DNA of 64,000 nt, from positions 1-64,000 of IMG/VR virus record IMGVR_UViG_3300020469_000001; one strand, written 5' to 3'. Source of the DNA: a virus. The first letter of the stretch is position 1, and each line of letters begins with the position of its first letter. Position numbers and translations under genes: made by a program. The notes under the pieces are model-generated. The model made no database searches. It was not told the DNA's origin and saw only the letters and a program-made list of their open reading frames with translations. Positions 932-20,600 of this stretch are shown one piece after another.

Positions 932-1548
932 TACTTGTCGGCAATTCTGTCGAAATATTACAACATCAACTTGCTGACTACATCGAAAGTTTCGATACAG
1001 TAGTGCGATTTGGAAATGGTATACCTGATGCAACTAATTGGGATAGTATTGGTAAGCGTACTGATATTTGGGTTACTGGGTATTTGAGATATGGTAAAAG
1101 AAAAATGTTCGCGAAAGATTGCGCAGTCTTGTTCAATCGTTCCCGAATACATCTCGGTGATGATGTCGATTCAAGACATCAAATAGATTTTAAATATGTA
1201 AATATGTTTTCGGACAAAGAGCTTATGTCACTCTTCAAATTATGTGGATCGGAAGTAGGGAAAACTGTTGGCGCAAGGCCATCGGCAGGTTTCATTGCAA
1301 TACAATATTTTTTACAGAAAACAAAATTTTCTTCTCTTACATTGGTAGGCTTTGACTTTTTTTCGAAAGCACTTCCAATTATTGCTGGAACGAATAATCC
1401 TTATAGTTGGCATATTCCTTTAAACACAGTAACAAGCAATCCCCATTCCCCGAAGGAAAAAGAGATTGTAGTTGATTTATATGAAAGGGGTGTGATTGAT
1501 TGGAAAATTTTGACCGATTTAGATGAGAGCTATCTAGACCTTTCCTAA
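889..1548 (+). CDS. GT29 (sialyltransferase-like) glycosyltransferase
   Basis: L-motif-like LVGNS...DTVVRFGN...GKRTD, S-motif-like PSAG...LVGFDFF, late conserved His. Confidence 0.75.
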   Translation: MEETLHNLTNNKSIILVGNSVEILQHQLADYIESFDTVVRFGNGIPDATNWDSIGKRTDIWVTGYLRYGKRKMFAKDCAVLFNRSRIHLGDDVDSRHQIDFKYVNMFSDKELMSLFKLCGSEVGKTVGARPSAGFIAIQYFLQKTKFSSLTLVGFDFFSKALPIIAGTNNPYSWHIPLNTVTSNPHSPKEKEIVVDLYERGVIDWKILTDLDESYLDLS

Positions 1549-2502
1549 GTAGAAACCTCTTTCTACTAACTTTCCTGCTGTTGATTTTTGTTTCGCTGTC
1601 TTAGTGAGCAATACATCATTTAATCTAGCGTTTCTAAAATTCATAGGAATCTTATCTATCAATGAAGTATAACAATCCCATGGTACAGCTAGTTGCAGTC
1701 CTGTTTGTAAGTATATATACTGAAGTGCTAAGTGTTCATGTTTTACATCTATAGTCCAGGATTTTCTTAACATGACATTATAGTCTAGTAATTCTTTTGC
1801 TCCTACTGCATCTAATTCGATAAGTACATCTACCTTTCCATTTACATATAGCGGTGACCATGAGTGCTTGTAAAAAGTAAGTGCTTCAAAGAAAGCACGG
1901 TCATTACATGCTATAAGTTTAGTATCTATACGAGGGCGTCTGCCTTGATTTGGTGGTAGCTTTTGGTCAATAAAAAATAAATCTTTATCATGAAACTCAG
2001 CGAGTTTGTCATAGTTTAAGATGACCATTGATTTATCTACTAGTGGTATTCTTTGATGTGTTTGGGTTGCTATATTCAATATTCCATAGTAGTTCTTCAA
2101 ATGACTTTTATCGAATACTAATTCTCTACTTAAAAATGAAAGTGAGCTTTTGAAAAACTCTGCTGGTGGTATGTCTCCTTCATCAATAGGTCTATTGAAG
2201 ATTCTGTTACCATACCATACGACCATTCTCTTTGCAAGTCCACCTTTATCTTTCCAATGATCTTTTAGATGGAATGTCATTCTAGAGATGTGTTCTTCCC
2301 TCCACCAAGATTCGTAGATTTTAATGTTATCAAAATTGTTTATCATCCATTGGACTTCTTTTTCTACCCAATCTTCTTTATGTATAAATAAATGTAAGCG
2401 AAACCCTGACTTATCAAGTAGGGAAGCTAAGGTGAAAAATGTCCAATCTTTCTTATATGTTGTTACTAATTCTATCATCCGTTTATTACCTTCATGCCCC
2501 AA
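1534..2502 (-). CDS. Divergent GT8-like protein lacking an obvious DxD
   Basis: TLASLL...LHLFI N-terminus and SMVILNYDKL resemble GT8 elements; weak similarity. Confidence 0.4.
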   Translation of the reverse strand: MGHEGNKRMIELVTTYKKDWTFFTLASLLDKSGFRLHLFIHKEDWVEKEVQWMINNFDNIKIYESWWREEHISRMTFHLKDHWKDKGGLAKRMVVWYGNRIFNRPIDEGDIPPAEFFKSSLSFLSRELVFDKSHLKNYYGILNIATQTHQRIPLVDKSMVILNYDKLAEFHDKDLFFIDQKLPPNQGRRPRIDTKLIACNDRAFFEALTFYKHSWSPLYVNGKVDVLIELDAVGAKELLDYNVMLRKSWTIDVKHEHLALQYIYLQTGLQLAVPWDCYTSLIDKIPMNFRNARLNDVLLTKTAKQKSTAGKLVERGFYLGKV

Positions 2503-3374
2503 AAGTTATTTAGGAACATTTCCATTCTTGTCTCTGCATCTTCGTCAAAATTGAATATAATGCCTGAGTTCCTTGCTGAGAATAATTTCATCAGCGATTC
2601 TTTTGCATTTGTATTTGCTATCGCAAAGTAAATGCTTTCGTAAGTCAAGAGAGCCTTCTCTCTATCCTCTTTTGTATGTGATACCATACTTAACTGCTTG
2701 TCTAACATTAGTGCCATCATTCCCATTTCACTATTCGGCATTGTGGCACAGTGAGTGCAATTTGCAAGAAGTTCAAAACCTCCTTCTTTTGGATCGAGTA
2801 CGTTCTCATCTCCAAAATCTTTTTTCATCTTTGCTACCCATATTTTCTGAGTAATAGGATGAGGTTTAATTACAAACCCCTCCTCGATTGCTCGTCTTAC
2901 TCTACCCCAATGAACACACTTACCTTTAGACAATAAGTTACTGCCTGGTAAAAATATTACTTTATCATAATATTTTTGATTTCCTGTTAGAGTATATTTG
3001 TTATGAAAGTTGTTAATAATTTTATTACATCTATCATAATCTATTTTTACATCTGGGTTATCAACAATAGATATCATTAACTTATCATTAATTTTTATAC
3101 TTGGTGTTTTGACCAGTATACCATTACCTAAAAAATCTGTGTATAACCATTTATGAACAGTGTTTAATGTATTAGTGTTAAACCAAATATCATACTGAAA
3201 AGGAGAACCACGATACTGTTTAGGTATAATTCTTTCCTTAAATTCTTCTAATCCTTCCAAGTCACTTGTTGGTCTATAACAAGAACCTGACTTCATAAAA
3301 TGAGTAGGTATATCTCCTAGCGACTCATTTATTGTTAGAGCTTCTAATTTTCCTTTAACTTTGATGCTTGGCAT
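2475..3374 (-). CDS. GT-B fold, capsule-modification (KpsC/KpsS-like) glycosyltransferase
   Basis: VIFLPG...VIKPHP...ELLANC...TMPNSEMGMMAL matches the KPHP/NS.vG.eAl pattern. Confidence 0.55.
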   Translation of the reverse strand: MPSIKVKGKLEALTINESLGDIPTHFMKSGSCYRPTSDLEGLEEFKERIIPKQYRGSPFQYDIWFNTNTLNTVHKWLYTDFLGNGILVKTPSIKINDKLMISIVDNPDVKIDYDRCNKIINNFHNKYTLTGNQKYYDKVIFLPGSNLLSKGKCVHWGRVRRAIEEGFVIKPHPITQKIWVAKMKKDFGDENVLDPKEGGFELLANCTHCATMPNSEMGMMALMLDKQLSMVSHTKEDREKALLTYESIYFAIANTNAKESLMKLFSARNSGIIFNFDEDAETRMEMFLNNFWGMKVING

Positions 3375-3532: not shown

Positions 3533-6500
3533 CTAGTTGCTTTCACTCCATTGTGAGCCATCCCAGAAGGAGAATCCGTAGTTGTCAAGGCTTGATACCT
3601 CTGTGTCAAACAGAGTACCCGCCTGAGAGGCAGTTGTTCTTTCGTATACAACTGTATTTGTTAGGAACACAGTTGTGGTTAAGTGGTCGGTCGTGACCGT
3701 GGTATCAGTAGTTCTATTAGTATTAAATGTTGTAGTTGTAGTTCTATCTGTACCAAAAGTTGTTGTTTTGCTTGTTTCAAATCCTGTAGTAGTATCAAAT
3801 GCAGTTGTTCTTGAAGTTTCAGTGCTTCTTGACGATGCTGTACTTCTACTTGATGCGGTTACATTATCAGTCTCAAAAGTTGTAGTTGTAGACTTACTTG
3901 TACCTGTACTTCTTGTTGTAACAGTTCCTTGAGTAGTTGCAAAAGTAGTAGTAGTAGCTTTACTTGTTTCGGTAGCTCTACTCGATCCTGTCCCTCTATC
4001 TGTTAAGAAGGTTGAGGTAGTCTCTCTACTTGACGCAGTACTTCTACTAGAGGCTGTTGTAGTATTTGTATTAAATGTGGTAGTAGTCGCTCTACTTGAT
4101 GCAGTACCTCTATCGGTTGCGGTAGTAGTGTTTGTATTAAATGTTGTAGTTGTGGACTTACTTGTACCTGTAGTTCTTGTTGTAACAGTTCCCTGTGAAG
4201 TAGTAAATGTAGTTGTTGTAGACCTACTCGATGCTGTACTTCTACTAGTTTGTGTAGCTTGTGTAGTATTAAATGTTGTAGTAGTATCTCTACTAGATGC
4301 TGTACTCTTACTTGTGGCAGTCGCTTGTGTAGTATTAAATGTTGTAGTTGTATCTCTACTTGACGCTGTACTTCTAGTAGTTTGTGTAGCTTGTGCTGTA
4401 TTAAATACTGTTGTTGTATCTCTAGCAGATGCAGTAGCTCTACTTGTAATTGTTCCTTGTGAAGTAGCAAATGTAGTTGTTGTATTTCTACTTGTTCCTG
4501 TCGCTCTTGAACTAATTCTACTTGTAATGTAAGCTGTCTCATAACTTGTTGACTGAGAAGTATTATCTACATATGCTGTTGATGTAGTAAATGTTGTAGT
4601 TCTTGACGTTGTCTGAGTAGTATTTGTATTCCTTGCAGTATTTGTTGCAAAAGATGTATTATCTATGTAAGCTGTACTTGTTGTAAATGTTGTAGTTCTT
4701 GTTGTTGACTGAGTAGTATTTGTACTTCGTGCAGTATTAGACAGTCTAACTGTATTATAAGTTGTGCTTTGTGAAGTATTTGTAGACTGTGTTGTATTTG
4801 TTGACTGAGTAGTATTTGTACTTCTTGCTGTGTTTGACAATCTTACTGTGTCATAACTTGTTGACTGTGATGTATTTGTAGACTGCGAAGTATTTGTAGT
4901 CTGAGAAGTATTAGTACTTCTAGCAGTATTCGATAGTCTAACAGTATTGTAACTTGTTGACTGTGAAGTGTTTGTGCTTTGAGTTGTGTTAGTACTCTGA
5001 GCTGTATTTGTACTTCTTGCAGTATTAGACAATCTTACAGTGTTATAACTTGTTGATTGTGATGTGTTCGTGCTTTGAGTTGTGTTAGTACTCTGAGCTG
5101 TATTTGTACTTCTAGCAGTGTTTGAAAGTCTTACTGTGTTATAGCTTGTTGACTGTGAAGTATTTGTGTTTCTTGATGTGTTTGATAGTCTTACAGTGTT
5201 GTAACTTGTACTCTGACTTGTATTTGTATTTCTACTTGTGTTTGTTGCCTGTGTAGTAGTTCTACTTGTATTTGTTGCAAACGAGGTATTATAAGCAGTA
5301 GAGTTTGTAAACCCTGTTGACCTACTTGTATTTGTAGACTGAGTAGTGTTTGTGTTTCTTGTTGTAGCAAAAGAGGTATTATCTACATACGCTGTTATTC
5401 TACTTGTATTAGTATTTCTTGATGTACCAAAAGAGGTATTATCTATGTACGCTGTTATTCTACTTGTATTAGTATTTCTTGATGTACCAAAAGACGTATT
5501 ATCTATGTACGCTGTTATTCTACTTGTGTTCGTATTTCTAGAAGTTCCGAAACTTGTGTTATCTATATATGCTGTAATTCTAGAGGTGTTAGTACTATTT
5601 GTAAATGAAGTGGCGTTTGTAAATGAAGTTGATCTACTTGTATTATTTGTAAACCCAGTACTTCTTGAACCTGATGTGTTGTTTGTAAATCCAGTACTTC
5701 TTGAAGTGTTTACATATGAGGTTTGTGTGTACTCTTCTCCTTCAGAATCTTCTTCTAGTTCTAGATACATTGTAATGTAAGTAGTAATTCTTGAAGTATT
5801 CGTAGCGCCTGAAAAAGCAGTATTTCTAGATGTGTTTGTAGCGAAGGACGTATTCCTTGATGTGTTTGTGTTTCTAGAAGTATTAGTATTATTTGTAAAC
5901 CCTGTTGACCTACTTGTATTTGTTGCTTGTGAAGTATTATAGGCCGTAGAGTTAGTAAACCCTGTTGATCTACTTGTGTTTGTTGCTTGTGTAGTATTAT
6001 AGGCTGTAGAGTTAGTAAAGCCTGTTGACCTACTTGTATTTGTAGCTTGTGTTGTATTGTAAGCTGTAGAGTTGGTAAAGCCTGTTGACCTACTTGTATT
6101 TGTTGCTTGTGTAGTAGTATAACTTGTAGATGTTGCAAATGTTGTGTTATCTACATATGCTGTTATTCTTGCTGTGTTTGTATTTCTACTTGTGCCTTGT
6201 GATGTATTATCTATATAAGCAGTTGTAAATGAAGTATTATCTACATACGCAGTTGCAGTTGTAAAGGTAGTTGTTCTACTTGTCGCAAAGCTAGTGTTAT
6301 CTTGATACGCTGTTGCAGTAGTAAATGTTGTAGTCCTTGTTGTTGCAAAGCTAGTGTTATCTTGATACGCTGTTGTCGTAGCAAATGTTGTTGTTGTTGC
6401 GAATGTAGTATTCGTAGCAAATGTTGTTGTTCTTGTAGTAGCAAAACTTGTATTATCTTGATATGCCGTTGTTGTTGTAAATGTAGTAGTTGTTGCAAAA

Positions 6501-7984
6501 GTTGTATTTGTAGCAAATGTTGTTGTTCTACTAGTTGCAAAGCTGGTATTATCTTGATATGCTGTTGTCGTTGTAAATATAGTTGCAGTACCAAATGTTG
6601 TTGTGGTAGTAAATGTCGTTGTTCTACTTGTAGCAAAACTGGTATTATCTTGATATGCAGTCGTTGTAGTAAATGTCGTATTTGTTGCGAATGTTGTGTT
6701 CGTTGCAAATGTAGTTGTTCTACTTGTAGCAAATGAAGTGTTATCCTGATAAGCTGTAGTTGTTGTAAATGTAGTATTGAAACTTGTTGACTGCGATGTA
6801 TTTGTACTTCTAGCAGTATTTGTAGCTTGTGATGTATTATCTATATAAGCAGTGCTTGTTGTAAATGTAGTACTGTAACTTGTTGACTGCGATGTATTTG
6901 TATTTCTTGCTGTGTTTGTAGCAAAAGAAGTATTCCTACTAGTACTTATCACTGTGTCATATGAAGTAGTGTAAGTCGTTGTGGTATTATAGGCAGTTGT
7001 TGTACTTTTTGTAGTTGCAAATACTGTTGTTGTTGCAAATGCAGTTGTAGTTGTAAATGCAGTTTCTGTGCTTTGACTAGTATTAAATGTTGTTGTTGTG
7101 TTAAATGCAGTTGTAGTTGTAAATGCAGTTGTTGTTGACTGTGAAGTATTAAATGTTGTTGTTGTATTAAATGTAGTAGTAGTCGTAAACGCTGTTGTTG
7201 TTGACTGCGAAGTATTAAATGTTGTTGTTGTATTAAATGTAGTAGTAGTCGTAAACGCAGTAGTAGTCGCCTGTGTAGTATTAAATACAGTAGTTGTAGT
7301 GAATGCAGTCGTTGTATTAAATGCAGTAGTAGTACCTTGCGATGTATTATAAGTTGTTGTTGTATTAAATGTGGTAGTAGTAGTATACGCTGTTGTGGTA
7401 CTTTGTGTTGTATTGTAAGTAGTAGTAGTTGTAAATGCAGTCGTTGTATTAAATGCAGTTGTAGTAGCCTGTGTAGTATTAAATGTAGTTGTAGTTGTAT
7501 AGGCAGTTGTTGTATTGAACGCAGTTGTAGTACTTTGTGTTGTATTAAATGTTGTAGTTGTAGTAAATGCTGTTGTAGTATTAAAAGCAGTTGTAGTACT
7601 TTGCGTAGTATTAAATACAGTGGTTGTTGAGAATAAGGTAGTAGTTGTAAATGCAGTTGTTGTATTAAATGCTGTTGTTCTACTTGTCTCAGTAGTATTA
7701 CCTGTATTAAATGTAGTAGTTCTACTTGTATCAAAAGTAGTAAGAGTACTTTGTGTTGTGTTAAATGTTGTGGTTGTAGAGAAGGCAGTCTCTCTAGTAC
7801 CGCTTATTGTACTAGTAGAAGTTGCTGTATTCCTTGAAGTTTCATGCGTAACAGTGAATGGCCCTGCTAGAGAGCCTCCATCGTTTACGTATACTTCATT
7901 GACTCTTCTGATAGTACCGCTGTCATTAACGGCCAGAAAAGAGATTTGACGAAGTGTTCCACTGTCATTAACATATATTGCCAT
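3533..7984 (-). CDS. Giant Thr-rich repeat protein; predicted self-complementary beta-hairpin fibre
   Basis: 1483-aa ORF in the tail-fibre operon; N-terminal YVNDxG repeats, C-terminal FWDGSQW; mirror-symmetric 22/32/20-aa repeat blocks. Confidence 0.9.
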   Translation of the reverse strand: MAIYVNDSGTLRQISFLAVNDSGTIRRVNEVYVNDGGSLAGPFTVTHETSRNTATSTSTISGTRETAFSTTTTFNTTQSTLTTFDTSRTTTFNTGNTTETSRTTAFNTTTAFTTTTLFSTTTVFNTTQSTTTAFNTTTAFTTTTTFNTTQSTTTAFNTTTAYTTTTTFNTTQATTTAFNTTTAFTTTTTYNTTQSTTTAYTTTTTFNTTTTYNTSQGTTTAFNTTTAFTTTTVFNTTQATTTAFTTTTTFNTTTTFNTSQSTTTAFTTTTTFNTTTTFNTSQSTTTAFTTTTAFNTTTTFNTSQSTETAFTTTTAFATTTVFATTKSTTTAYNTTTTYTTSYDTVISTSRNTSFATNTARNTNTSQSTSYSTTFTTSTAYIDNTSQATNTARSTNTSQSTSFNTTFTTTTAYQDNTSFATSRTTTFATNTTFATNTTFTTTTAYQDNTSFATSRTTTFTTTTTFGTATIFTTTTAYQDNTSFATSRTTTFATNTTFATTTTFTTTTAYQDNTSFATTRTTTFATNTTFATTTTFATTTAYQDNTSFATTRTTTFTTATAYQDNTSFATSRTTTFTTATAYVDNTSFTTAYIDNTSQGTSRNTNTARITAYVDNTTFATSTSYTTTQATNTSRSTGFTNSTAYNTTQATNTSRSTGFTNSTAYNTTQATNTSRSTGFTNSTAYNTSQATNTSRSTGFTNNTNTSRNTNTSRNTSFATNTSRNTAFSGATNTSRITTYITMYLELEEDSEGEEYTQTSYVNTSRSTGFTNNTSGSRSTGFTNNTSRSTSFTNATSFTNSTNTSRITAYIDNTSFGTSRNTNTSRITAYIDNTSFGTSRNTNTSRITAYIDNTSFGTSRNTNTSRITAYVDNTSFATTRNTNTTQSTNTSRSTGFTNSTAYNTSFATNTSRTTTQATNTSRNTNTSQSTSYNTVRLSNTSRNTNTSQSTSYNTVRLSNTARSTNTAQSTNTTQSTNTSQSTSYNTVRLSNTARSTNTAQSTNTTQSTNTSQSTSYNTVRLSNTARSTNTSQTTNTSQSTNTSQSTSYDTVRLSNTARSTNTTQSTNTTQSTNTSQSTTYNTVRLSNTARSTNTTQSTTRTTTFTTSTAYIDNTSFATNTARNTNTTQTTSRTTTFTTSTAYVDNTSQSTSYETAYITSRISSRATGTSRNTTTTFATSQGTITSRATASARDTTTVFNTAQATQTTRSTASSRDTTTTFNTTQATATSKSTASSRDTTTTFNTTQATQTSRSTASSRSTTTTFTTSQGTVTTRTTGTSKSTTTTFNTNTTTATDRGTASSRATTTTFNTNTTTASSRSTASSRETTSTFLTDRGTGSSRATETSKATTTTFATTQGTVTTRSTGTSKSTTTTFETDNVTASSRSTASSRSTETSRTTAFDTTTGFETSKTTTFGTDRTTTTTFNTNRTTDTTVTTDHLTTTVFLTNTVVYERTTASQAGTLFDTEVSSLDNYGFSFWDGSQWSESN
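3870..7620 (-). repeat. Coding tandem repeats of 66, 96 and 60 bp, mirrored around ~5740
   Basis: About 10x22 aa, 4x32+20 aa, 4x20 aa | 4x20 aa, 20+4x32 aa, about 10x22 aa. Confidence 0.9.
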
Positions 7985-7987
7985 CTA

Positions 7988-8209
7988 TTAACTCGAATAT
8001 ACAAACCAAATATGCCCACTTGATGTACCACTGGTATTTGTTGGAGCAGTTGTTGTTATAGTCATAGGTAATCTTGCGGATGCGATAGTACCACTAGTAA
8101 TTTTTCCAGTAGCTACTGCTCCTTCAAAGTTTCTACTTGCATCGATAGTATCTGTACCATCAATTTTAAGTCCTGAGTCCTCGATGTTGAAATCTAATTT
8201 TTGTCCCAT
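7988..8209 (-). CDS. Small tail-fibre connector protein
   Basis: KITSGTIASARLP repeat and C-terminal TTAP...GHIWFVY motif typical of fibre junctions. Confidence 0.65.
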   Translation of the reverse strand: MGQKLDFNIEDSGLKIDGTDTIDASRNFEGAVATGKITSGTIASARLPMTITTTAPTNTSGTSSGHIWFVYSS

Positions 8210-8210
8210 T

Positions 8211-11210
8211 TTATACCTCTATTGTTGTTCTAACGAACTTATATGCCATAGTATCACCACTTGCTGGTGTTACTCTTAACCTTACATTACCACCACTTAT
8301 ATCTGCATCAAATGTTGCTTGTGCACCATTGTCAAATATAGAAGCGTACTGTGTTAAATATACTGTTGAACCATCATGGAATAAGAATATTTCTATTGCA
8401 TGAAAGTTTGTGTCTGTTGAATTTGTTACCTGTACATTGTACTTAGCAGTTCTAAATATAGAAGCGCTGAATGAATCTAGTGTAAATACTGTTGTAGCAC
8501 CTGATGTTCCTGTACCAACATCCATACCAGCTACTTCATCTATGTGTAGTTTTTGTGGTGGGTTAGTATCTTGTATACCTATCTTATCTGCTTGTAATCT
8601 TGTAGTAGCATTAAGTGTTGGTATTACTTGAGTTCCAGTAAATGTTTGATTTAAAGCCCCTGCATCTATCTTAGCTGCTGTTACTGCATCATCTGCTAGT
8701 TCTGTTGTATCTACATTACCTGCAACTATATTTGCTGTAACAACTGAGTTATCTGCTAACTTTGCTTGTGTTACTGCATCAGCAGCTAGTTTAGCTGTTG
8801 TAACTTGTAAGTTTCCTAAATGTATAGTGTCTATACTACCACTTACTAATTCTGCTGAATCTACTGAGTTTGCTGCTAAGTCTCCTGCTGCAATAGTTGC
8901 ATCTGCTATCAAGTCTGATGTAATTAGACCGCTTGATATAAACGCAACACTATTAATAGCATTATCTGCTATCTTACTTGATATTACTGAATCAGTCGCT
9001 AGTTGAGCTGAATCTACTTGACCATTGTCAATATGTTTAGTAAGAATACTATTCTGTGCTATTTTTTCACTTGTGATTGCATTGTCTTGTACCTTTGCAG
9101 TCGCTACTGAGTTACCAGCTAATTGTGCTGTGTTAATTAGAGCGTCTGCAATAAAGTCAACACTATCAATAGCGTTGTCTGCAATATGTCTTGATACTAT
9201 TTGGTCGGTTGCAATTTTTGCTGAAGTAACATTGTTAGCTGCTATCTTAGCTGTTAGTACTGAATTACCTGCAAGATGTATACCATCTATACTACCAGTT
9301 ACTAATTCTGCGCTGTCTACACTATTCTGTGCTATCTTACCAGCTGTTACTGCATTATTTGCTAACTTAACAGTAGTTACCTGTAAGTCTCCTAAATGTA
9401 TTGTATCTATTGATCCACTAACTAACTCTGCTGAGTCTACTGAGTTGGCGGCTAGACTTGTTGCTAGAGCGACTCCAGCTGAACCATTGAAGTTCACACC
9501 TGAAGCAGTTACATCTCCTGTTAGAGAGAAAGCTCTATTTGTTGCTAAAGCTGTAGCTGTATCTGCATTACCTGTTAACGCACCTGTTACATCTCCGTAA
9601 AGTCTACCTGCTTGTATATTTGCATTTGTAAGAGATAAGTCTCCAGTCGATGCACCTGTTGCTGTTGTAGTTGCAAATCTTACTCTGTCTGCACTTTCAT
9701 CCCAACCAATAAATACATTGTTTGAGTCGCCTCTTTCCATTACAATACCTAAGTCACCAGATGGAGTTCCTGTTACTCCGTTTGCTAGTTCTATTAACTT
9801 ATCTGATACTACTGTATTTGTTGATGAAGCTGTTGTTGTTGTTCCTGTAAATTCTACATCACCTGAAAAACTGACACTACCTGTAAATGTTTGTCCACTA
9901 AGTGCGTCTGATTTTAGTTCTGATGATGATACAGCGTTAGCTGCTATCTTTACTGCTGTAATCGCATTGTCAGCTATCTTTGCTGTTGTTACATTTGAGT
10001 CTGCAATATGTGCTGTATCAATACTGCCGTCTACATAGTGTTCTGAATTGATACTATCGTCTGCAATTTTTGCTCCACTTACTACATCTGCAGCTAAGTG
10101 TATTGCATCGATACTGCCTGAAACAAGTTCTGCTGAGTCTACTGAGTTAGCAGCTATTTTAGCCGCTGTAATTAGATTGTCTGCAAGGTCTACTGTATTG
10201 ACTGCTCCATTTACTATTTTTGCTGAAGTAACAGAATTATCAGCAAGTTCATTACTAGTTACTTGTGAGGCACCAATTTTTGCTGTTGTTACAGCATCAG
10301 TTGCAAGATGTATTGCATCTATACTACCAGTTACTAACTCTGCTGAGTCTACTGAATTTTCAGCTATCTCTGATGAGCCTATTGCATTTGCAGGTATTTT
10401 TGCCGATGTAATAGCGTTGTTAGCTATCTTTGCTGTTGTTACTTGTAATGCTCCTAAATGTATTGTGTCTATTGAGCCTGTTACTAATTCTGCTGAATCT
10501 ACTGAGTTAGCAGCTATCTGTAAAGCTCCTACACCATCAGTTGCGATTTCACTTGCAGTAATTGAGTTTTCAGCTATAAGTGCGCTAGTAATTTGATTAG
10601 CTGCTATGTGAGCAGTATCTATACTACCATCTACTAAATGTTCGGAATCTATTGAATCATCAGCTATTTTTGCGCTTGTAACTGCGTCAGCTGCTATCTT
10701 ACCTGTAGTAACATTTAAGTTTGCTATTTTTGCTGTTGTTACTTGTGAAGCTCCAATATGTATTGTATCTATTGAACCTGTAATTAATTCTGCTGAATCT
10801 ACAGAGTTTGCTGATAGTTGTGTACTACCTACTGCGTTACCTGCTATTTCTGCAGTATCTATTGAATTGGCAGCTATCTCACTCGAAGTGATTGCGTTTG
10901 CTCCTATCTTCGCTGTTGTAACTGCACCTGTTGATAGATGTATTGTATCTATACTTCCTGAAACTAACTCGCTAGAGTCTACTGCATTAGCTGCTATAGC
11001 TGCTGCATCGATTGCATTGTCTTGAACCCCTGCTACTGATGTAGCTTGTAGTTGAGCGGCACCAACTGCATTAGTTGCTAACTCAGCTTGTGTAATTGCA
11101 TTAACTGCTATTTCTGAAGCCGTGACAGCATTAGCTGCTATCTTAGTGGCCGTAATAGCATTACCTGCTACCGCATTTTCTTGTACTAAAACCTTACCTA
11201 TTAATGGCAT
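8211..11210 (-). CDS. Long tail fibre with 10-residue VTxAKIAxx/VDSAELVxG repeats
   Basis: Dozens of decapeptide repeats; C-terminal FRTAKYxVQ...HDGSTVYLTQYA domain common in marine phage fibres. Confidence 0.8.
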   Translation of the reverse strand: MPLIGKVLVQENAVAGNAITATKIAANAVTASEIAVNAITQAELATNAVGAAQLQATSVAGVQDNAIDAAAIAANAVDSSELVSGSIDTIHLSTGAVTTAKIGANAITSSEIAANSIDTAEIAGNAVGSTQLSANSVDSAELITGSIDTIHIGASQVTTAKIANLNVTTGKIAADAVTSAKIADDSIDSEHLVDGSIDTAHIAANQITSALIAENSITASEIATDGVGALQIAANSVDSAELVTGSIDTIHLGALQVTTAKIANNAITSAKIPANAIGSSEIAENSVDSAELVTGSIDAIHLATDAVTTAKIGASQVTSNELADNSVTSAKIVNGAVNTVDLADNLITAAKIAANSVDSAELVSGSIDAIHLAADVVSGAKIADDSINSEHYVDGSIDTAHIADSNVTTAKIADNAITAVKIAANAVSSSELKSDALSGQTFTGSVSFSGDVEFTGTTTTASSTNTVVSDKLIELANGVTGTPSGDLGIVMERGDSNNVFIGWDESADRVRFATTTATGASTGDLSLTNANIQAGRLYGDVTGALTGNADTATALATNRAFSLTGDVTASGVNFNGSAGVALATSLAANSVDSAELVSGSIDTIHLGDLQVTTVKLANNAVTAGKIAQNSVDSAELVTGSIDGIHLAGNSVLTAKIAANNVTSAKIATDQIVSRHIADNAIDSVDFIADALINTAQLAGNSVATAKVQDNAITSEKIAQNSILTKHIDNGQVDSAQLATDSVISSKIADNAINSVAFISSGLITSDLIADATIAAGDLAANSVDSAELVSGSIDTIHLGNLQVTTAKLAADAVTQAKLADNSVVTANIVAGNVDTTELADDAVTAAKIDAGALNQTFTGTQVIPTLNATTRLQADKIGIQDTNPPQKLHIDEVAGMDVGTGTSGATTVFTLDSFSASIFRTAKYNVQVTNSTDTNFHAIEIFLFHDGSTVYLTQYASIFDNGAQATFDADISGGNVRLRVTPASGDTMAYKFVRTTIEV

Positions 11211-13349: not shown

Positions 13350-13730
13350 TTAAAAGCTCCCTGCGTCTACCGTATCTGAGTCCGCTGAGTTGTTACCTAT
13401 CATTATAGGGACAAATTCAAATGTTCCACTAGATGTTTCTCGGTAGATCTTTAACTGATTATCATCAGTATCATAATATAAATCTCCTTCTGCCAAGTCT
13501 GTTGTACTTGACGTAGGAGCTGTTGTTGATACAAAAAATTGGTTGGCAAGAAAGTTGAGTGCTTCCTCTACATTTGAAGCTGTTGAGATAGTACCTACTG
13601 GTGAAGTAAGTGTGATACCTGAAGCAGCTGAAGTATCTCCGCCTATGGCGTTAGAAATTGTTAGTGTAGTGGTTTGTGCAGTGGCATTTATAGTCTGTGT
13701 TTGTGGAGTAATTGATATAGTTGTTGCCAT
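13350..13730 (-). CDS. Tail fibre accessory protein
   Basis: STTAP...EGDLYYDTDDNQLKIY motif; C-terminal DAGSF. Confidence 0.6.
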   Translation of the reverse strand: MATTISITPQTQTINATAQTTTLTISNAIGGDTSAASGITLTSPVGTISTASNVEEALNFLANQFFVSTTAPTSSTTDLAEGDLYYDTDDNQLKIYRETSSGTFEFVPIMIGNNSADSDTVDAGSF

Positions 13731-14068
13731 TATCTTGTCACATTCTGTGTAACTCTTGCTACACCTTGAACCAATCTAGTGATTGTATTTGCACTAGAAT
13801 TAAAAATTTCAGTATCATAATAATATTTACCTGCAGCTATATTTGCAGTAAGAGCATGTCCTAATTTCATAGTGAACTTACCATTAGCTGTGTCTGTAAC
13901 TGTACAAGTAAATGTTGCTGTAAGAGTATTGGAAGAAGGGGTAGGACGTAGTTGTGCTGTAACACTGTGGTTACTAAGATTAACTGCTGTGCCGTCTTGG
14001 GCTAAAGCAAATTCCAAAGCAAAATCACTGCCTTGGTCAATAACTATATCATAATTTCCTGCTGCCAT
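13730..14068 (-). CDS. Fibre collar/anchor protein (T5 p132/LtfC- or BppU-like)
   Basis: YDIVIDQGSDF...GKYYYD...RLVQG; first gene of the fibre operon. Confidence 0.7.
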   Translation of the reverse strand: MAAGNYDIVIDQGSDFALEFALAQDGTAVNLSNHSVTAQLRPTPSSNTLTATFTCTVTDTANGKFTMKLGHALTANIAAGKYYYDTEIFNSSANTITRLVQGVARVTQNVTR

Positions 14069-14163: not shown

Positions 14164-14604
14164 TTAGTTATATCTATCTCCATACAATGTTCGAGCAAAT
14201 TTATCTTTTAACGCTAGTAGTTTGTCTTCTTCTAACATGATAGTTTTTGCCCAGTTAAGCATTATAGCCTCAGTTACGTTTTGATAGGGAGTGACAAATC
14301 CTGATAGTTCACCCCCTGCTTTGGCTCTCCAAGGTAAGTAAACTTTTTCATATTCTTCGTGTTCTTGGTCATTCTGCCCTTCAACTAAGTGACTGGCATT
14401 TGAGGAAGTATCATCTTTTCCTGTAATTTTTAGTCTAACCATCTTTACCATGTCATTTTCTCTTATTCTTGGCATTTCTTGATTATTTACAAAATGTTGA
14501 GTTTCATGATTAGAATACTCCCATACAAAATTCATTTGTACATTAAGTGTTGTAGTAACTGCGTTTCCTTCGCTGTCTGTTCCTGTTTTAATTATATAGT
14601 CCAT
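14164..14604 (-). CDS. Hypothetical protein (possible tail-tip chaperone)
   Basis: TAATG-coupled to TipJ; FVTPYQNVTE..MLNW motif. Confidence 0.6.
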   Translation of the reverse strand: MDYIIKTGTDSEGNAVTTTLNVQMNFVWEYSNHETQHFVNNQEMPRIRENDMVKMVRLKITGKDDTSSNASHLVEGQNDQEHEEYEKVYLPWRAKAGGELSGFVTPYQNVTEAIMLNWAKTIMLEEDKLLALKDKFARTLYGDRYN

Positions 14605-17600
14605 TATGCCTTCTGATTCCCACCTACGTTATGTGCAACGTATCCTTTATTATTTCCACCGCGTACTACATAAGTATCATCATCTTCTACATCCATATTA
14701 TGAGTAATACAAGATTGTGTTACTTTAGGTATCGCAAATATTTCTTCTCTAGTTCCATCTTCACAGATTAAAAAGTCCCCAACTCTTAAATCTTCTACTA
14801 TTACAAATTTAAATACATCATCTTTAAATGTTAACATTGGATGTTCATTAGTAACTTTTAAATTATAATTAATCCAATAATAATTTGTATGTGAATGGGG
14901 GTCTGTTACCTCGACAACATTTGAAGTTCCAAAACTTCCACTGCCTATTTCTGGAGTTGTCCAAGTTTCCCAAGCATTTTCATCGAGTGATAAACTTGAA
15001 TGTCTGAATGATTTTACATTTTCTCCAGCAGTTACATCTTCGATTGCTTTCGTAGTTCCATCAGCCATGACGACAGGAGTTCCTTGTACGAAACAACCTC
15101 CTCCGCCTCCTGGCGGATTGCCTCCTCCGCCTCCAGAGGTGCCTCCAGTTGTTACAGTATAGTCTGCTGAGGCTTCTCCTATAGTAACAGTTGAAGTTCT
15201 TGCGGTAAGATTTGCATTTGCTGAAGTAATCTCAACATTGATATAACTTCCATTTGCTATATTTTGATTTGAAGTTCCAAAACTTCCATTATCAATTTTA
15301 AATCTTGTGAAAGAAGTATTACTTATACTTGCTGTTTTTGTTCCTTGGAATCCTCCAACTACTTGTGTGTTTGAATATGTTGCAGTATTTAATGCTACAC
15401 CTGTTTGGTTTGCAAAACTAAATACTGGATCTGTTGTTCCAAACTTGATAAATCTTGCTTCCGCTGAACCTACTGTATCTGGCCCCGTATCTGCTTGAGC
15501 TCTTATAAACATTGATACATTACCGGAGCCTGTATATGTAAATGCAATCGGCATATTAGCTGTTTGTGCACTAGAGAATAGTCTACCTTCTGATAAGTTA
15601 CCTGCTGTATATTGGTCTACCCTAGGAGTTTCATAAATTAATGTTCCGTCACTTGCAGTAGAACTACCTGTTCTTGCTTGAATACTAATAGTCTTAACAT
15701 GGTTTGTTCCACCAGTCAATCTTACAAATCCTTGATAAAAGCCCGGGCCACTACCTACACTTACAATATGTTTGTTATCCATAGTGTTGGTAGACCAGCT
15801 ACCTACAGTACTACCAGATACATTGGCACCAGATGAAGGCACTACAAGTGTACCATTTACTACTATGTCATCTCCTTCAAGTGTACCTTTGAATTTTGCA
15901 TTACCTGCTGTATCAATCATAAATGTATTAGCAGATATAAATCCATCCGATCCTAGTAATATACCACCTGTATTTAAGAAAGCATTATTACCTTGCGTAC
16001 TATCAGTAGTAGTAAAGTTACCTACGATTCCACCACCTGCTAAGTGATATTGACTGATTGACCAACCACCAATACCTCCGCCAACTACTGTTGATGAAGC
16101 ATTTACTGCGGCGTGAGTAACTTTTGAGTCTGCGGTACTTTGAGCAGTTGCTGCATTGGTAGTTGCAGTATTCGCTTGACCGTATGCATTGCCTGCTTTT
16201 GTATCTGCAGCTGCTGCATTTGTTGTTGCAGTATTGGCTTGTCCATAAGCATTACCTGCTTTTGTGTCTGCCGAGGCAGCATTGGTAGTAGCTGTGTTAG
16301 CCTGCCCATATGCATTGCCCGCTTTTGTATCAGCCGCGGCTGCATTAGTCGTAGCCGTGTTAGCTTGACCGAAAGCATTACCTGCTTTTGTATCAGCTGC
16401 TGCTGCGTTAGTAGTAGCAGTATTAGCTTGTGTAAAAGCGTTGCCCGCTTTTGTATCTGCTGATGCGGCATTTGTTGTAGCAGTATTTGCTTGACCAAAA
16501 GCTGAATTTGCTTGACCAAAAGCTGAGTTTGCTTGTCCAAATGCTGAGTTAGCTTGTGTAAAGGCTGAGTTTGCTTGTGTAAATGCACTATTAACTGTGC
16601 CTGATAAAGTGGAACTTCCAGCTGCTGTGTTAAATGCACCTACTGATATACTTCCGCTAAAACTTCCTGTTGCAGCTTGTAGTTCTCCTTTAAATTTAGC
16701 GTTACCTGCAGTGTCTATATAAAATTGATTTGCAGAAATAAAACCGTCTGACCCTAGTAAAAGGCCCCCTGTGTTTAAGAATGAAGCATTGCCTTGTGTG
16801 TTATCGTTTGTTGTAAAGTTTCCTACAATACCTCCACCTGCTATATGGTAAGTTGTTATGCTCCATCCACCTATTCCACCACCTACTATAGTTGATGATG
16901 AGTTAACTGCGGCATGGGTTACTTTTGTGTTTGCTGCAGCATGTGCTGAATTAGCTGCTGTATGTGCTGTATTACCTTTGGAAAATGCTGAGTTTGCTTG
17001 TCCAAATGCTGAGTTAGCTGCTGTATGTGCTGTATTACCTTTGGAAAATGCTGAGTTAGCTTGTGTAAAGGCTGAATTTGCTTTATCATCGTCTGTAAAT
17101 CCAGAATCGTTATTTAGGTCAGATATATCTTTACCTGCAATATTTATTCGTGCAGCATCAATTGTTCCTGTTGTAATTCTTCCCCCATCAATTGTAGTAG
17201 TACCACTTGAACCTAGATCTGAAGATGTGATTCCTGTATGAGTGTTAGTACCATCTGTTATTGAGTTAGTTCCTGTAAATGTTACAAGACCTGTAAAGTT
17301 CTGTCCTTGATAGGCTTGTGAGAATGTAATCGTTGGTGTACTATCATTAAATTCATCTTCAACAACACTAAAGTATGCATACCAATATTTATTAGAGTTG
17401 CTACCTGTGTATGTAGGTTGTATTTGATTCCAATTTGTACCACCTGTACCAATTACACCACCGCTTAATAAGCTAGTGCTAAAGCTGTATGATATTCCTG
17501 CGTTTGAAGGATTACCTGGTGAACTCGAACTTGATGATTGATAGAAAATGTAACCAGTAGCAGTTCTTGGGCCAGTGCCCCCTGCAGCTCCATCATCTCC

Positions 17601-20600
17601 TTCTTTTGATTTTGTGAAAGTTTGTGCTTTTGTTACTGTGAGTTCATTTTCTATATTTATAGAGTATTCTATCTCTGCAGTATTAGCTGAGGTTGTGAAA
17701 GAACTATGATTGCCAATCGTTACATTAGCATGTGCTGATGCAGTGTTAAGTGTATAACTACCTACTGTAATATTAGTATCAGAGTTAGTTGTAACTGAGA
17801 ATTGGTCTGTTCCCGGTGTACCTGTGTTTGCTACTGGAGTAAGTCTTGTTGCTCCTCTGTATACTTCTATTGATGTTCCTGAGTTTGTAAAATCTGATAC
17901 TGCACCTGCTTTTGTTGCTGGAAAAGTATGAGCTTCATTAGATAGTATTGGAGTATATCCTGCACTTCCTTGTTGTAGTGATGCGATAGTAATACTATCA
18001 AAAGCAAGTTCTACTTGGTTACCATCCGCTACTCCTACTCTAACTGTTTGAGGGCTAGTATTTATGCTTGCTGGTACACTAAATGTAAAAGTATCTTGCG
18101 CACCTGAGCCATCTGTGTAAGAAGTTTCATCACTTATACCATCCCCTGTAAATTTAAAGTAAGGGTCATCAAAGTTTTGTGATGTTGCTGTCAAAGTAAT
18201 TGTACTACTTGGGCTTGGACTTGTTCCACCAGAGTTGTAAATAATAGAGAAGTCTGACGCTGTTAGGTTAACAGTTCTTGAATCTGTACCTGCTCCAGCT
18301 GCTCCTGGTATACTTTTACCTAGTGAAATAACTCTTGTTCCGATTGTTTCACCTGTGTATCTATCCGTAATTGTGACTGTAATTTTAGCTGTTGTTTGTG
18401 TTATTGCACTAACAGTTATTTCTCCTGTTGAGGAGTTGATTGCTGAAGTACAATTTGTATCTGCCTTTGATAACCCAAAAGTATTAAGGGCAGTACCACT
18501 ACTTGCAAATGCTAATGTTACTGAGCCTTTTTTGATTGAGTAGATATTTGAGAAACTAGAGAAATCACTTACTGTTCCGTTTGAAGCTGAAGGGAAGTTA
18601 TGGTTTTCATTTGTACCATTTACAGAGTATGCATCTGTACCCTTGTTACCACTAGCATAGTTTACTATAGAGAAAGTACCGCTTGTATTAGCTACTTCTC
18701 CAATAATAGTATCTTTGATAAAGTTTGGTTGTATTCTTTGTGAGAATACATTTTTGTTTGTTAAGTTTGCTGTTGGAGTATACGCTACTTCAAGAGCTGT
18801 GTTACTATGAATATGGTTAACTGTTGCTATAAATCTTGTAGTTCCACTATCATATATGAACATATCTCCAGCTTCGTACTCTGTTAAGAAATTTGTTCCT
18901 GTTCCTATAACAACTGTATTTCCTGCAACAACATTTGCTGTTCCTGTCTTTTGTACAAAAGCAGTTGCGTCTAAATTTTTTGAATATCTGAATAAGTCAG
19001 CACCAGTATTATCTTTTACATATTCTATCGCTTTTAGTGGGTCAGTAGTATCACTATAATCCCACAATAGATAACCAGTCTTTCCACTAGCTAAGTTTGA
19101 AAAGCTACATGAAGTTTGAGCAGTTGTACCGCTTGTGACTGTTATTGTTTGTAAATCTGATTCTGCTGGAGTAAAATTATAAGTGCTTTCTGTAAACTGC
19201 ACTAATGCATTTGAACTGTCTATATTAAAACCAGTTGTTAACATTCCGCCTTTTCTTACATATGGCTCTAAATTTTTTGCTGGTTTTTCAGGGTTAATAG
19301 TTATTCTTCTTTGAACATATGGAGAAGGTGCTCCATTCGTTGCTACAGTTCTGATTCTTACTATAAACGTACCTGCTTTTGGTATATTATCAAAAGTAAA
19401 ACTTCTTACATCAGGAGATACTGCAACCTTTTGAAAACTTTCTTTACCCGCTGTTACAGAGTTAGTATATAAATTATGTTCTATCTCATAGTGTTGAATA
19501 TGCTCGTAAGGAGTTTCTATCTGAACATCATTTAAATCTTTTCTTTGACTTAATGGTGGTGACCAATATACATCTAATGAAGGAGGTGTAAATCTTTGTT
19601 CATCCGAACTAGTTACCCTTGTTTCATCATCATTATCTCGTATTCCTTTTACTAATTTTAATTGATAACTTCTTGGTTGTGGTACTCCATCTTCGGATTT
19701 AGGAGGTCTTAATACATCAGGAATATTAGAAAGTTTCCACCCTCTATCTACTTCATCGAATTTACCCTCTGATTGTCTAGCTGCTGAAATAGCAAAAGAT
19801 TTATCTTCTTGTTCTTTTATTTCAACAATACTATATTGTTTTGGTGACCCTGCTAATTTTTCTCCTGCTGCTGTTGTCTGTGATATAGCAAAAATTACTT
19901 CCTCAGTTGGTGCAGAACTAAATGCTGAACCTACAACTACATGAGTTGCATTGTAAGAACTAATTGCTTTTGTCTCTATTCTAGTATCTTCTGACCATGC
20001 GATGTCTAATACATTTCCACTATCGTCTCGTGCATTTACAGAGTCTTCTTGCGAATCTAAATTGTATAGAGCATCTGACACATTTTTTCCTTGAAGAATT
20101 AAGTCTCCCTGATTATAAGTAACACTACCTATAGTTGCATTTGGTTGTGCAAGATACGCCCCTGATTTAGGGAATATTAAAGTTAAATCAGCATTTGCAG
20201 CACTGCTTAATGCTACTGTTCTATCTACAGGAATAACTGTTGTTGTTGCTCCGCTTGATACTCTACCACTTAATTGAACATTATCTCTATCTGAGTCTTG
20301 TATTTCAATTAAATCTCCTGGTCTTAGTAATTGTCCGCCAATGCCTGAAGCAAAACTTACAATTTCGCTATCTCGAGTTTCTGTTAGTAAGTGGAACTTA
20401 CCAACTCTATGTGCTTGTGCTTGTGATGTACACCCATAAGCAACTGTTGCTTTAGATGTTATTTGCCTGGTTTCAGCAATATTTGTTGTATCTTCTACTA
20501 GTTCTACTGTTTGTAAATAATGATTATCTGGGTCATTCCAAGTCACTCTTATTTGATTGGCTTGTACTCGTCTAGAAGGGTATGAATATGCAAACTCTCC

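Follow-up and report, generated by a model that had tools for sequence, protein, structure and literature searches.

A probable marine phage fibre protein whose two arms are complementary in reverse and which probably folds back into a long beta ribbon

The gene at positions 3533..7984 (minus strand) of the window, a stretch of 64,000 nucleotides from IMG/VR virus record IMGVR_UViG_3300020469_000001, encodes a protein of 1483 aa plus stop (P0001) whose first half is matched in reverse, side chain against side chain, by its second half. We consider it likely that this protein is a tail-module fibre of an uncultured, distantly T5-like marine siphovirus and that it folds back as a two-stranded antiparallel beta ribbon, a reading that supports the hairpin filament proposed in an initial annotation of the same DNA. 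Self-folding into one long thin ribbon is highly likely because the reverse matching persists in relatives of 668-1621 residues. An identical protein is encoded on an independent IMG/VR contig (L002). Threonine (38.9%), serine (13.4%) and asparagine (9.5%) together make up 62% of the residues, V+I+L+M only 4.9%, and histidine 2 of the 1483. No Pfam or PHROG family covers the whole protein, which is without similarity to gp37 or known fibre families; it had zero matches among 50,697 phage records, and relatives were absent from the 185,579 prokaryote genomes searched.

Complementarity was scored as pairs of an aromatic residue (F, Y or W) with R, K or Q over every antiparallel register c=i+j. 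The single sharp peak that the initial annotation had predicted stands at c=1498, where 124 of the 143 aromatics are paired and neither aromatic:aromatic nor RKQ:RKQ pairs occur. Runner-up registers scored 61 (c=1504) and 59 (c=1492), and such secondary peaks hold same-class clashes, for example 23 aromatic:aromatic pairs at c=1504. Full shuffles of the protein gave 23.3 +/- 1.5 (maximum 31), parity-preserving shuffles 33.7 +/- 1.8 (maximum 40), and permutation of class labels over fixed marked positions 62 +/- 5.5 (maximum 81); genome-wide, the fibre ORF reached z=66 and the remaining 30 ORFs of at least 250 aa stayed at z<=3.1. A gapped fold-back alignment kept one register over 690 pairs, with 123 complementary positions, no same-class pair and 16 positions where a marked residue faces an unmarked one. 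The residues first quoted for this register (Y736/R762, Q128/F1370, F74/R1424, Gly749 and the loop start at 740) are all correct in the translation, and the spacings between marked residues do mirror from arm to arm, reading 4,8,4,6,4,6,8 at the tip end. Two details were revised: the number of residue pairs rises from the ~660 first estimated to 690 (residues 50-739 with 759-1448), and Asn, formerly counted in the pairing code, is not really a member of it because it contributes just 3 pairs.

The marked residues are nearly confined to even positions (Phe 92/96, Tyr 42/45, Arg 76/79), which is a beta-strand signature, and the odd positions are occupied mainly by the small polar residues S, N, A, T and G. 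Along the even positions runs a series of Thr:Thr pairs into which a heterotypic pair is set at intervals of 4-8 residues; in these pairs Tyr faces Arg, and Phe faces Arg, Gln or Lys. A coded pair falls at only ~1 position in 5 or 6. Complementarity holds at all marked positions of each repeat unit and is not limited to a single face. Partner choice is selective across the family, with Y:R found 1188 times vs 52 for Y:Q (306 expected), and with tryptophan paired as W:Q 38 times vs 4 for W:R.

Divided by these features, the protein has five parts, all encoded on the minus strand. The N-terminal domain (aa 1-49; 7838..7984) consists of three 14-residue 'VNDSGT(L/I)R' units, is near-invariant among 39 relatives, is similar to the N-terminal end of phrog_13729 (E 5e-9) and, judged by sequence, is a probable virion-attachment adaptor. 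A ~45-aa N-terminal module of this kind also starts many phage proteins of 160-625 aa that carry different C-terminal domains (Ig-like, Gly_rich_2); these are of fibre or decoration type. The outward arm (aa 50-739; 5768..7837), aligned in the single register i+j=1498, contains 86 aromatics and 48 R/K/Q residues, and the return arm (aa 759-1448; 3641..5710), delimited by the same fold-back alignment, contains 44 and 84. Between them lies an acidic, non-repetitive tip loop (aa 740-758; 5711..5767), located by sequence, fold-back alignment and an AlphaFold2 hairpin, inside which Gly749 (nt 5738-5740) marks the symmetry axis. The C-terminal domain (aa 1449-1483; 3536..3640) carries an 'FDTEV...WDGS.W' block conserved in 39 relatives.

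The mirror order extends to the repeat arrays in the DNA, where Tandem Repeats Finder returned periods (nt) of 66 x 10.1, 96 x 4.8, 60 x 3.8, the axis, 60 x 3.8, 96 x 4.9 and 66. We derived the mirror partner range of each N-arm array from i+j=1498. The 20-aa units (60 nt x 3.8; 5895..6121, minus strand) face an array at 5355-5582 (60 nt x 3.8; computed 5357-5584), and the 32-aa units (96 nt x 4.8; 6318..6776, minus strand) face one at 4702-5167 (96 nt x 4.9; computed 4703-5158), so that three of these four boundaries agree to within 2 nt and the remaining one to 9 nt, as the mirrored blocks described earlier would have it. The 22-aa units (66 nt x 10.1; 6993..7660, minus strand) have their partner array at 3875-4507, which agrees with the computed range of 3818-4483 to within one 66-nt unit. 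Only one 15-nt inverted repeat exists in the whole gene, in line with the earlier statement that the DNA itself is not an inverted repeat. Assignment to the beta-solenoid or antifreeze-like T-x-T repeat class was also considered and rejected, the best parallel offset scoring 57 vs 124 for the antiparallel register and the mirrored order of the arrays being unpredicted by that class.

Among relatives, taken as 49 distinct full-length proteins of 668-1621 aa (a 2.4-fold length range), all 49 have a complementarity peak of their own at c = L+15 to L+18, a spread that arises because the tail after the conserved C-terminal Trp varies in length. Arm lengths measured from conserved landmarks are correlated at r=0.997, and for 27 of the 49 the N arm and the C arm differ by exactly 8 residues. 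Same-class pairs number 0-1 per relative, with the sole exception of L080 (3). Strict arm balance is the rule but is broken in four relatives, where one arm holds a block with no counterpart in the other (~20 residues long in three of them, ~60 in L053). Compensating changes were likewise found: a 2-residue insertion in the N arm is mirrored by a 2-residue insertion in the C arm (L064, L068, L080), and a class change in the N arm is accompanied by the matching change of its C-arm partner in 869 of 1209 cases, 293 of these being swaps of aromatic and polar residues between strands, with higher ratios among close relatives (6/6, 19/20, 19/21). The axes of nearly every relative fall on non-repetitive, turn-like tip segments (DPENG, EGE, GGG and similar).

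Structure prediction bore out the proposed hairpin in part. AlphaFold2 places a hairpin at residues 729-767, with strands 729-745/751-767 centred on the axis and pLDDT 73-88, whereas the rest of the chain is drawn with short strands at pLDDT <50 and long-range pairing does not appear there; the long ribbon was reproduced in none of the predictions made. Taking these observations together with the register, we propose that the chain would run outward for 690 residues, turn at the 19-residue acidic loop (aa 740-758) and run back for 690, held in register at i+j=1498, with its variable loop forming the fibre tip, where a receptor might be contacted. Fully extended, such a two-stranded ribbon would be about 230 nm long, compared with the ~200 nm given earlier. 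Its even face would present Thr:Thr and heterotypic pairs, the latter acting as a register code and possibly making cation-pi and amide-pi contacts, and its odd face small polar residues. Each exposed ring would probably be covered by a long planar side chain, and the ribbon could thus do without a hydrophobic core. Folding may nucleate at the tip and zip towards the base, where the adaptor (aa 1-49) would meet the C-terminal domain (aa 1449-1483), both anchoring the fibre to the virion, and fibre length may evolve by matched gain or loss of 20-, 22- and 32-residue units in both arms. Counting against this model, the odd face is rich in Asn, Ser and Gly, which are poor beta formers, and we know of no solved precedent for a core-less two-stranded ribbon ~230 nm long; nor did we find a description of such a fold-back architecture in the literature.

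The strongest competing explanation, which we hold to be rather unlikely, keeps the fold-back but bundles three such chains as a six-stranded antiparallel needle or tube. This would be a greatly extended version of T4 gp37 with the odd face turned towards a narrow interior, and the S/N/A/T/G composition of that face would indeed suit a tight interior. It is well established that tail fibres are almost always trimers, and the passage of PMC9659904 on T4 describes the gp37 tip as a six-stranded antiparallel beta needle built from three out-and-back chains. According to that passage, which summarises Bartual et al. 2010, the needle lies within the last ~215 residues, is an obligate trimer and contains His-bound iron ions. 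The likeness to our protein, as predicted from sequence and the tip model, is that the chain runs out to the tip and returns as antiparallel beta structure, that both segment ends are virion-proximal, and that the receptor-contacting part (putative here) is at the turn. The differences lie in scale and chemistry: compared with the short gp37 needle, each arm here has 690 residues, there is an aromatic:Arg/Gln/Lys register code, and with 2 His in all the His-x-His metal motif is absent. A second clean register for an inter-chain neighbour is also missing, c=1504 having its 23 aromatic clashes, aliphatic residues for a core are almost absent, and the threefold internal repeat of the N-terminal domain could seat one chain on a threefold site.

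Dispensing with the fold-back, at least two extended chains might instead pair antiparallel, the N arm of one with the C arm of the other, in a fibre twice as long. An antiparallel homodimer predicts i+j=constant complementarity equally well, and the identical sequence signature of such inter-chain pairing counts against the fold-back ribbon, but a dimer needs a self-complementary centre, and the axis is turn-like and pattern-breaking in nearly every relative and is modelled as a hairpin; the N-terminal adaptor would moreover sit at both fibre ends, and pairing within a single chain is kinetically favoured, all of which makes this arrangement very improbable. That the protein is a heavily glycosylated, mostly disordered mucin-like stalk or a beta-solenoid of 20/22/32-residue repeats, its mirror symmetry structurally meaningless, is harder still to credit, for although the high Thr+Ser+Asn content, a glycosyltransferase-fold gene adjoining at 77 loci, repeat lengths within the range of solenoid coils and the short strands of the low-confidence AlphaFold2 region would fit, neither disorder nor parallel coil stacking would lead one to expect reverse complementarity that is exact to the residue across 690 pairs, at all marked positions of each repeat unit and not one face only, kept through a 2.4-fold length change.

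The single-chain ribbon has partial parallels elsewhere. Beta-hairpins with cross-strand aromatic-cation pairs, both designed and natural, and single-layer beta-sheet proteins such as OspA or the SasG rod are core-less, side-chain-paired, Thr-rich beta structures, a design shared with our reading of the fibre protein, but they comprise tens of residues or strings of small domains, and to our knowledge none is a ~690-pair hairpin or has a mirror-symmetric repeat architecture. Periscope proteins, which sit on the surfaces of Gram-positive cells, project a distal binding part to a distance set by how many near-identical tandem repeats they contain, such that repeat-number variation tunes length as proposed here; their repeats, however, are independent domains in series of which any number works, whereas a change in one arm of the fibre protein needs matching in the other (PMC8201768). 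By analogy only, the protein resembles nucleic-acid hairpins in its reverse self-pairing, its heterotypic rule with preferences, its compensatory double changes, its bulges and its loop, and differs in being a protein with ~1 coded pair per 5-6 positions. The family is an unusually clean protein case of residue-level coevolution, which opens the structural hypothesis to direct testing. Should the inferred structure prove right, it would represent an architectural principle new to proteins, a self-complementary beta zipper with a coded register that reaches hundreds of nm without a hydrophobic core, would offer a natural template for programmable protein fibres of set length, and would indicate how abundant marine phages make very long host-searching fibres and alter their reach quickly.

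In the genome, the minus strand carries in order terminase, portal, protease-capsid, tube, tape measure, tail L-like, J-like and fibre-like genes and then the gene described here, which closes the tail-fibre block. Directly downstream at 77 of 79 loci is a gene for a 299-aa protein (2475..3374, minus strand) with a GT-B-like glycosyltransferase fold. Its AlphaFold2 model (pLDDT 87.8) is nearest by fold to retaining beta-Kdo transferases (KpsC/KpsS GT107, WbbB GT99, KrkA): the top 12 Foldseek matches (E 2e-6) are KpsC/WbbB/KrkA without exception, the top 14 by VIA-align are all retaining beta-Kdo transferases (Z 8.2-9.8 over 193-227 residues), and an ESM Atlas structure match led to a KpsS/LipB cluster at TM 0.61. 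By sequence, a PDB search gave no match, and only 1 of 37 relatives matched PF05159 Capsule_synth, at E 0.098, which does not place the family there. Retaining beta-Kdo glycosyltransferases use a catalytic Asp nucleophile and contact CMP through a His-Pro motif; K170-P171-H172-P173, a candidate for the latter, is invariant across the 37 relatives. With a neighbour of this predicted fold, the fibre may be glycosylated, the product of the gene probably decorating the Thr/Ser-rich shaft. Only tentatively, and with somewhat more doubt than confidence, do we advance the full combination of a core-less ~230-nm single-chain ribbon with a side-chain-coded register (Tyr:Arg, Phe:Arg/Gln/Lys, Trp:Gln), RNA-stem-like evolution, repeat-tunable length and a sugar coat applied by a dedicated phage enzyme. 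The second gene downstream (1534..2502, minus strand; 77 loci) encodes a conserved 322-aa protein for which Pfam and PDB sequence searches gave no match. On the other side, a conserved 73-aa gene (7988..8209, minus strand) lies directly upstream of the fibre gene at all 71 loci that have it, separated by a few nt (3 nt in the window, from ORF coordinates).

The fiber gene is a minus-strand ORF of 1483 residues (window 3533-7984) within the leading 64 kb of an IMG/VR record of 105,272 bp that is complete and has direct terminal repeats, and its product is built largely of Thr (38.9%), Ser (13.4%), and Asn (9.5%), with Val, Ile, Leu, and Met together contributing only 4.9%. The initial annotation had read this protein as two arms that complement each other residue by residue around a central axis, and all of the residues it quoted were correct when checked against the 1483-aa sequence. 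For every value of c, the sum of two facing residue numbers (c=i+j), we counted the aromatics (F/Y/W) opposite R/K/Q, which revealed the unique antiparallel peak that had been proposed at c=1498. At this sole sharp peak 124 of 143 aromatics were paired, with no aromatic:aromatic and no R/K/Q:R/K/Q pairs, while the next-best antiparallel registers were c=1504 (61) and c=1492 (59) and the best parallel offset scored only 57. Best peaks in the controls were 23 ± 1.5 (23.3; maximum 31) for composition shuffles, 34 ± 1.8 (33.7; maximum 40) for shuffles preserving odd/even composition, and 62 ± 5.5 (maximum 81) when the aromatic and polar classes were permuted on fixed marked positions (aromatic or R/K/Q). 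Among the 31 genome ORFs of ≥250 aa that were scored, the fiber ORF stood at z=66 and the remaining ORFs at ≤3.1.

The pair table at c=1498 is a code: Tyr is partnered by Arg only (36 pairs), Gln by Phe only (43 pairs), and Phe by Arg, Gln, or Lys. Even positions hold 92 of 96 Phe, 42 of 45 Tyr, and 76 of 79 Arg, with T/S/N/A/G at the odd positions, a parity that, as read from the sequence, corresponds to the every-second-residue pattern of beta strands, unbroken over ~1380 residues. A gapped fold-back alignment joined residues 50-739 with 759-1448 as 690 pairs in one register without a gap, leaving a 19-residue loop (740-758); 123 of these pairs were complementary, none were same-class, and 16 set a marked residue against an unmarked one. 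Size complementarity on the odd face did not exceed expectation (~2 aliphatic:aliphatic pairs seen, ~2 expected).

Relatives were collected by a pattern scan of IMG/VR, which yielded 79 loci; a word-based homology search using the full-length protein produced no hits at E≤0.001, probably due to its low-complexity sequence. These loci hold 49 distinct full-length proteins of 668-1621 residues (668 at locus L072) with a common N- and C-terminus, and for each of the 49 the highest antiparallel score of its own lay at L+15 to L+18 (L, protein length), the offset following solely the residue count after a conserved C-terminal Trp. In nearly all relatives the axis lies in a short turn-like stretch without repeats, which varies among lineages, and their fold-back alignments start at the pair (50, ~L-34) and end at the tip, with 0 or 1 same-class pairs in all but the L080 protein (3). 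Arms measured to the tip from the GPF motif (residue 43) and from the last [FY]ER motif ranged across the 49 proteins from 298 to 777 residues and were correlated at r=0.997, with an arm difference of exactly 8 in 27 of them. In three loci (L064, L068, and L080) a 2-residue insertion after outward-arm position 88 is accompanied by a second 2-residue insertion after return-arm position 1408, and the partners of residues 88/89 in the well-aligned arm base are 1410/1409.

Compensation was counted by aligning the outward arms alone and reading each protein's own partner, with the window protein as reference. Of 1209 cases in which the class of an outward-arm residue differed from the window protein, 869 showed a partner changed so as to retain a good pair, 293 of them strand swaps of aromatic and polar residues; these counts represent non-independent events. 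Close relatives gave ratios of 6/6, 19/20, and 19/21. Partner preferences held family-wide, with Y:R at 1188 versus Y:Q at 52 (306 expected) and W:Q at 38 versus W:R at 4, and divergent members additionally use F:L, Y:I, F:V, and W:G pairs.

The expectation that indels in homologues would be balanced between the arms was thus supported by the peaks, the arm correlation, and the matched insertions, but four proteins departed from it relative to near-identical sisters (L003/L004 versus L002, L026 versus L023, L053 versus L052, and L066 versus L055), the unbalanced block amounting to ~60 residues in L053 and to a single ~20-residue unit in each of the other three. Two of these loci, L003 (2152-6540) and L004 (4505-8893), carry one variant with 98% identity to the window protein in the best tblastn segment. 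In this natural unbalanced variant a single 20-residue unit is missing, and solely from the return arm, which leaves ~20 outward-arm residues unpaired near aa 607-632, and as the two loci come from two samples such a bulge seems to be tolerated. In seven loci (L023, L028, L036, L038, L048, L049, and L052) the register shifts by +1 at intervals of 21 residues through 2-6 units in a row, where 21-residue units of one arm lie opposite 20-residue units of its partner; this looks like regularly spaced beta bulges.

Arms lying side by side, antiparallel, and in register are the only simple model we found for reverse, residue-exact, heterotypic complementarity that persists while protein length varies 2.4-fold, and strict two-residue parity would make their pairing a beta ladder in which even-position pairs would all share one type of geometry and project from the same face. 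With 0.33-0.35 nm for each residue, a ribbon of 690 pairs would measure ~230-240 nm. The few aliphatics, and the placement of every aromatic against a long planar polar side chain, would fit a solvent-exposed, core-less ribbon. The main alternative to a two-stranded ribbon, and a possible one, is a trimer whose six strands would form a tube enclosing the small-residue face. The closest described system is the T4 gp37 needle, in which three out-and-back chains form six antiparallel strands around iron-histidine sites (PMC9659904). The fiber protein would have the same out-and-back topology, here deduced from sequence, but it has neither the histidine motif nor sequence similarity, is ~10 times as long, and relies on a pairing code where the needle uses metal. 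Periscope proteins (PMC8201768) likewise tune their length by repeat number, although, unlike in the fiber, matched changes are not needed there.

Pairing between chains is the other arrangement to weigh, and we favor fold-back within one chain because the axis is non-repetitive and turn-like, a tip hairpin is predicted, and only one end carries the predicted adaptor. The initial annotation had expected structure prediction to recover long-range antiparallel pairing, and this was borne out at the axis but not along the shaft. AlphaFold2, run on residues 629-869 with 40 axis-centered relatives, gave a mean pLDDT of 46.5, and its confident part consisted of two 17-residue strands (729-745 and 751-767) with a 5-residue loop at the axis (block means over 729-767 of 73, 88, 88, and 68; everything else <50). 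The model supports a tip hairpin and says nothing reliable on the shaft. A complex prediction of the termini, with 110 aa from the N-terminal end and 96 aa from the C-terminal end, each with its alignment, gave a score of 0.02 and a mark of 0.32, which counts neither for nor against the model.

At the DNA level, the repeat arrays of the fiber gene run in the order 66 nt x10.1, 96 x4.8, 60 x3.8, 60 x3.8, 96 x4.9, and 66, and the mirror images (i+j=1498) of the outward-arm arrays land on the return-arm arrays, as expected from the mirrored repeat blocks described in the initial annotation. Boundaries of the 60- and 96-nt arrays fit to ≤2 nt at three of four and to 9 nt at the fourth, and the 66-nt array fits within one 66-nt unit. 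The claim that this symmetry exists at the protein level only also held, since the fiber-gene DNA contains a single 15-nt inverted pair, which rejects an inverted DNA duplication read in another frame as its source, and since an antisense-codon origin would set Phe with Lys/Glu, Tyr with Ile/Val, and Thr with Ser/Gly/Arg/Cys rather than the observed pairs.

The N-terminal 49 residues of the fiber (7838-7984, minus strand) form three nearly invariant, hairpin-like units of 14 residues and match the start of phrog_13729. A profile search revealed this ~45-residue module (three VNDSGT-type units) at the head of numerous proteins of 160-625 aa whose C-terminal parts are unrelated and include Ig-like and Gly_rich_2 domains. 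It occurred in 168 clusters, mostly of 160-200-aa phage proteins of the phrog_13729 type (P0014-P0151), such as gp68 of Pectobacterium phage ZF40, which adjoins tail-fiber genes. The same search with the N-terminal alignment returned fragments and short adaptor-bearing proteins, and no further full-length fibers. Such sharing among proteins with unrelated C-terminal parts would be expected for a virion-attachment adaptor, the predicted role here.

The fiber gene lies at the end of a siphovirus structural module on the minus strand, which runs from terminase through a portal (~40% identity to T5-like Vibrio and Pectobacterium phages), a 685-aa protease-capsid fusion with Peptidase_S78 and Phage_capsid in one frame (34272-36329), a T5 p143-like tail completion protein, tube, a 1379-aa tape measure, a tail L-like protein, and a 2687-aa J-like tail tip protein (14604-22667; Phage-tail_3 at aa 643-797). 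A 112-aa protein follows (13730-14068) that matches 'L-shaped tail fiber protein assembly' PHROGs (phrog_3304, E 3e-16), which would fit a distant T5-like nature of the phage, and then come two fiber-like proteins (523 and 999 aa), a 73-aa gene (7988-8209), the fiber gene, and the 299-aa and 322-aa genes. Hint/intein-like matches at the C-terminus of the J-like protein (PF05203 at aa 2525-2551, PF07591 at aa 2600-2680) suggest a self-cleaving C-terminal domain.

Tape measures give ~0.15 nm of tail length per residue in lambda-like phages, and the calculated ribbon would be similar to the tail length expected on this basis. A tie between fiber length and tail length was rejected: tape-measure frames span 1252-1379 aa in the five records with a complete frame (the window's included), while a sixth frame, truncated where its contig stops, reaches at least 1129 aa, and as complete frames are nearly constant while fibers in these records vary from 849 to 1483 aa, fiber length is uncoupled from tail length.

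The 73-, 299-, and 322-aa genes adjoin the fiber gene in 71-77 of 79 loci. The 73-aa gene (58-100% identity across loci) stops a few nt before the fiber start codon in every locus reaching there (71; 3 nt in the window), and its product could be an adaptor or chaperone. The 322-aa gene (1534-2502, minus strand), second downstream, and the plus-strand 219-aa (889-1548) and 218-aa (275-931; matching phrog_28018) genes hold their position in ~70-77 loci and matched no Pfam family, and for the 322-aa protein neither a sequence match in the PDB nor profile similarity to the 299-aa gene was found.

Immediately downstream of the fiber gene in 77 of 79 loci, the 299-aa gene (2475-3374, minus strand) encodes a protein with a confidently predicted GT-B-like fold. 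The ESM Atlas gave a KpsS/LipB-like fold, and an AlphaFold2 model with 37 relatives (pLDDT 87.8, pTM 0.85) matched retaining beta-Kdo transferases first and almost exclusively: the top 12 Foldseek matches were to KpsC, WbbB, and KrkA (E down to 2e-6), and the top 14 in VIA-align were of this class (Z 8.2-9.8; 193-227 residues, both domains), followed by a CMP-dependent polysialyltransferase. Membership in the class fails at the sequence level. A K-P-H-P motif at residues 170-173 is invariant among relatives and may correspond to a His-Pro motif that contacts CMP in retaining beta-Kdo transferases. The CMP-sugar synthetase family PF02348 is absent from the phage genome, and any sugar donor would therefore come from the host. 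The modeled fold and the conserved position make this protein a candidate fiber-glycosylating enzyme, and the Thr/Ser-rich fiber would plausibly be glycosylated. In mycobacteriophages, transferases encoded by the phage are known to glycosylate virions (mentioned in PMC11256854). In the fiber, 73% of Asn lie in N-x-S/T sequons versus 49% expected from composition, which is suggestive only.

Searches of cultured phages returned no match to the whole fiber protein or to the neighboring fiber-gene DNA, with only the N-terminal 48 aa weakly matching ZF40 gp68 (E 3e-3). Pfam and PHROG hold no family for the fiber protein, literature searches found no description of its family, and as the prokaryote genomes searched contained no relative, no host is named. 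Near-identical DNA was present in marine, seawater, and viral metagenome runs from about ten studies. Contigs from two marine RNA libraries, none of which covers the fiber 5' end, span 8094-8291 and 8316-8400, for which DNA carry-over is possible. Elsewhere in the window, we observed a fusion of a CHASE2 sensor with a class III adenylate/guanylate cyclase (43998-45782, minus strand; Pfam E 5e-32 and 9e-21).
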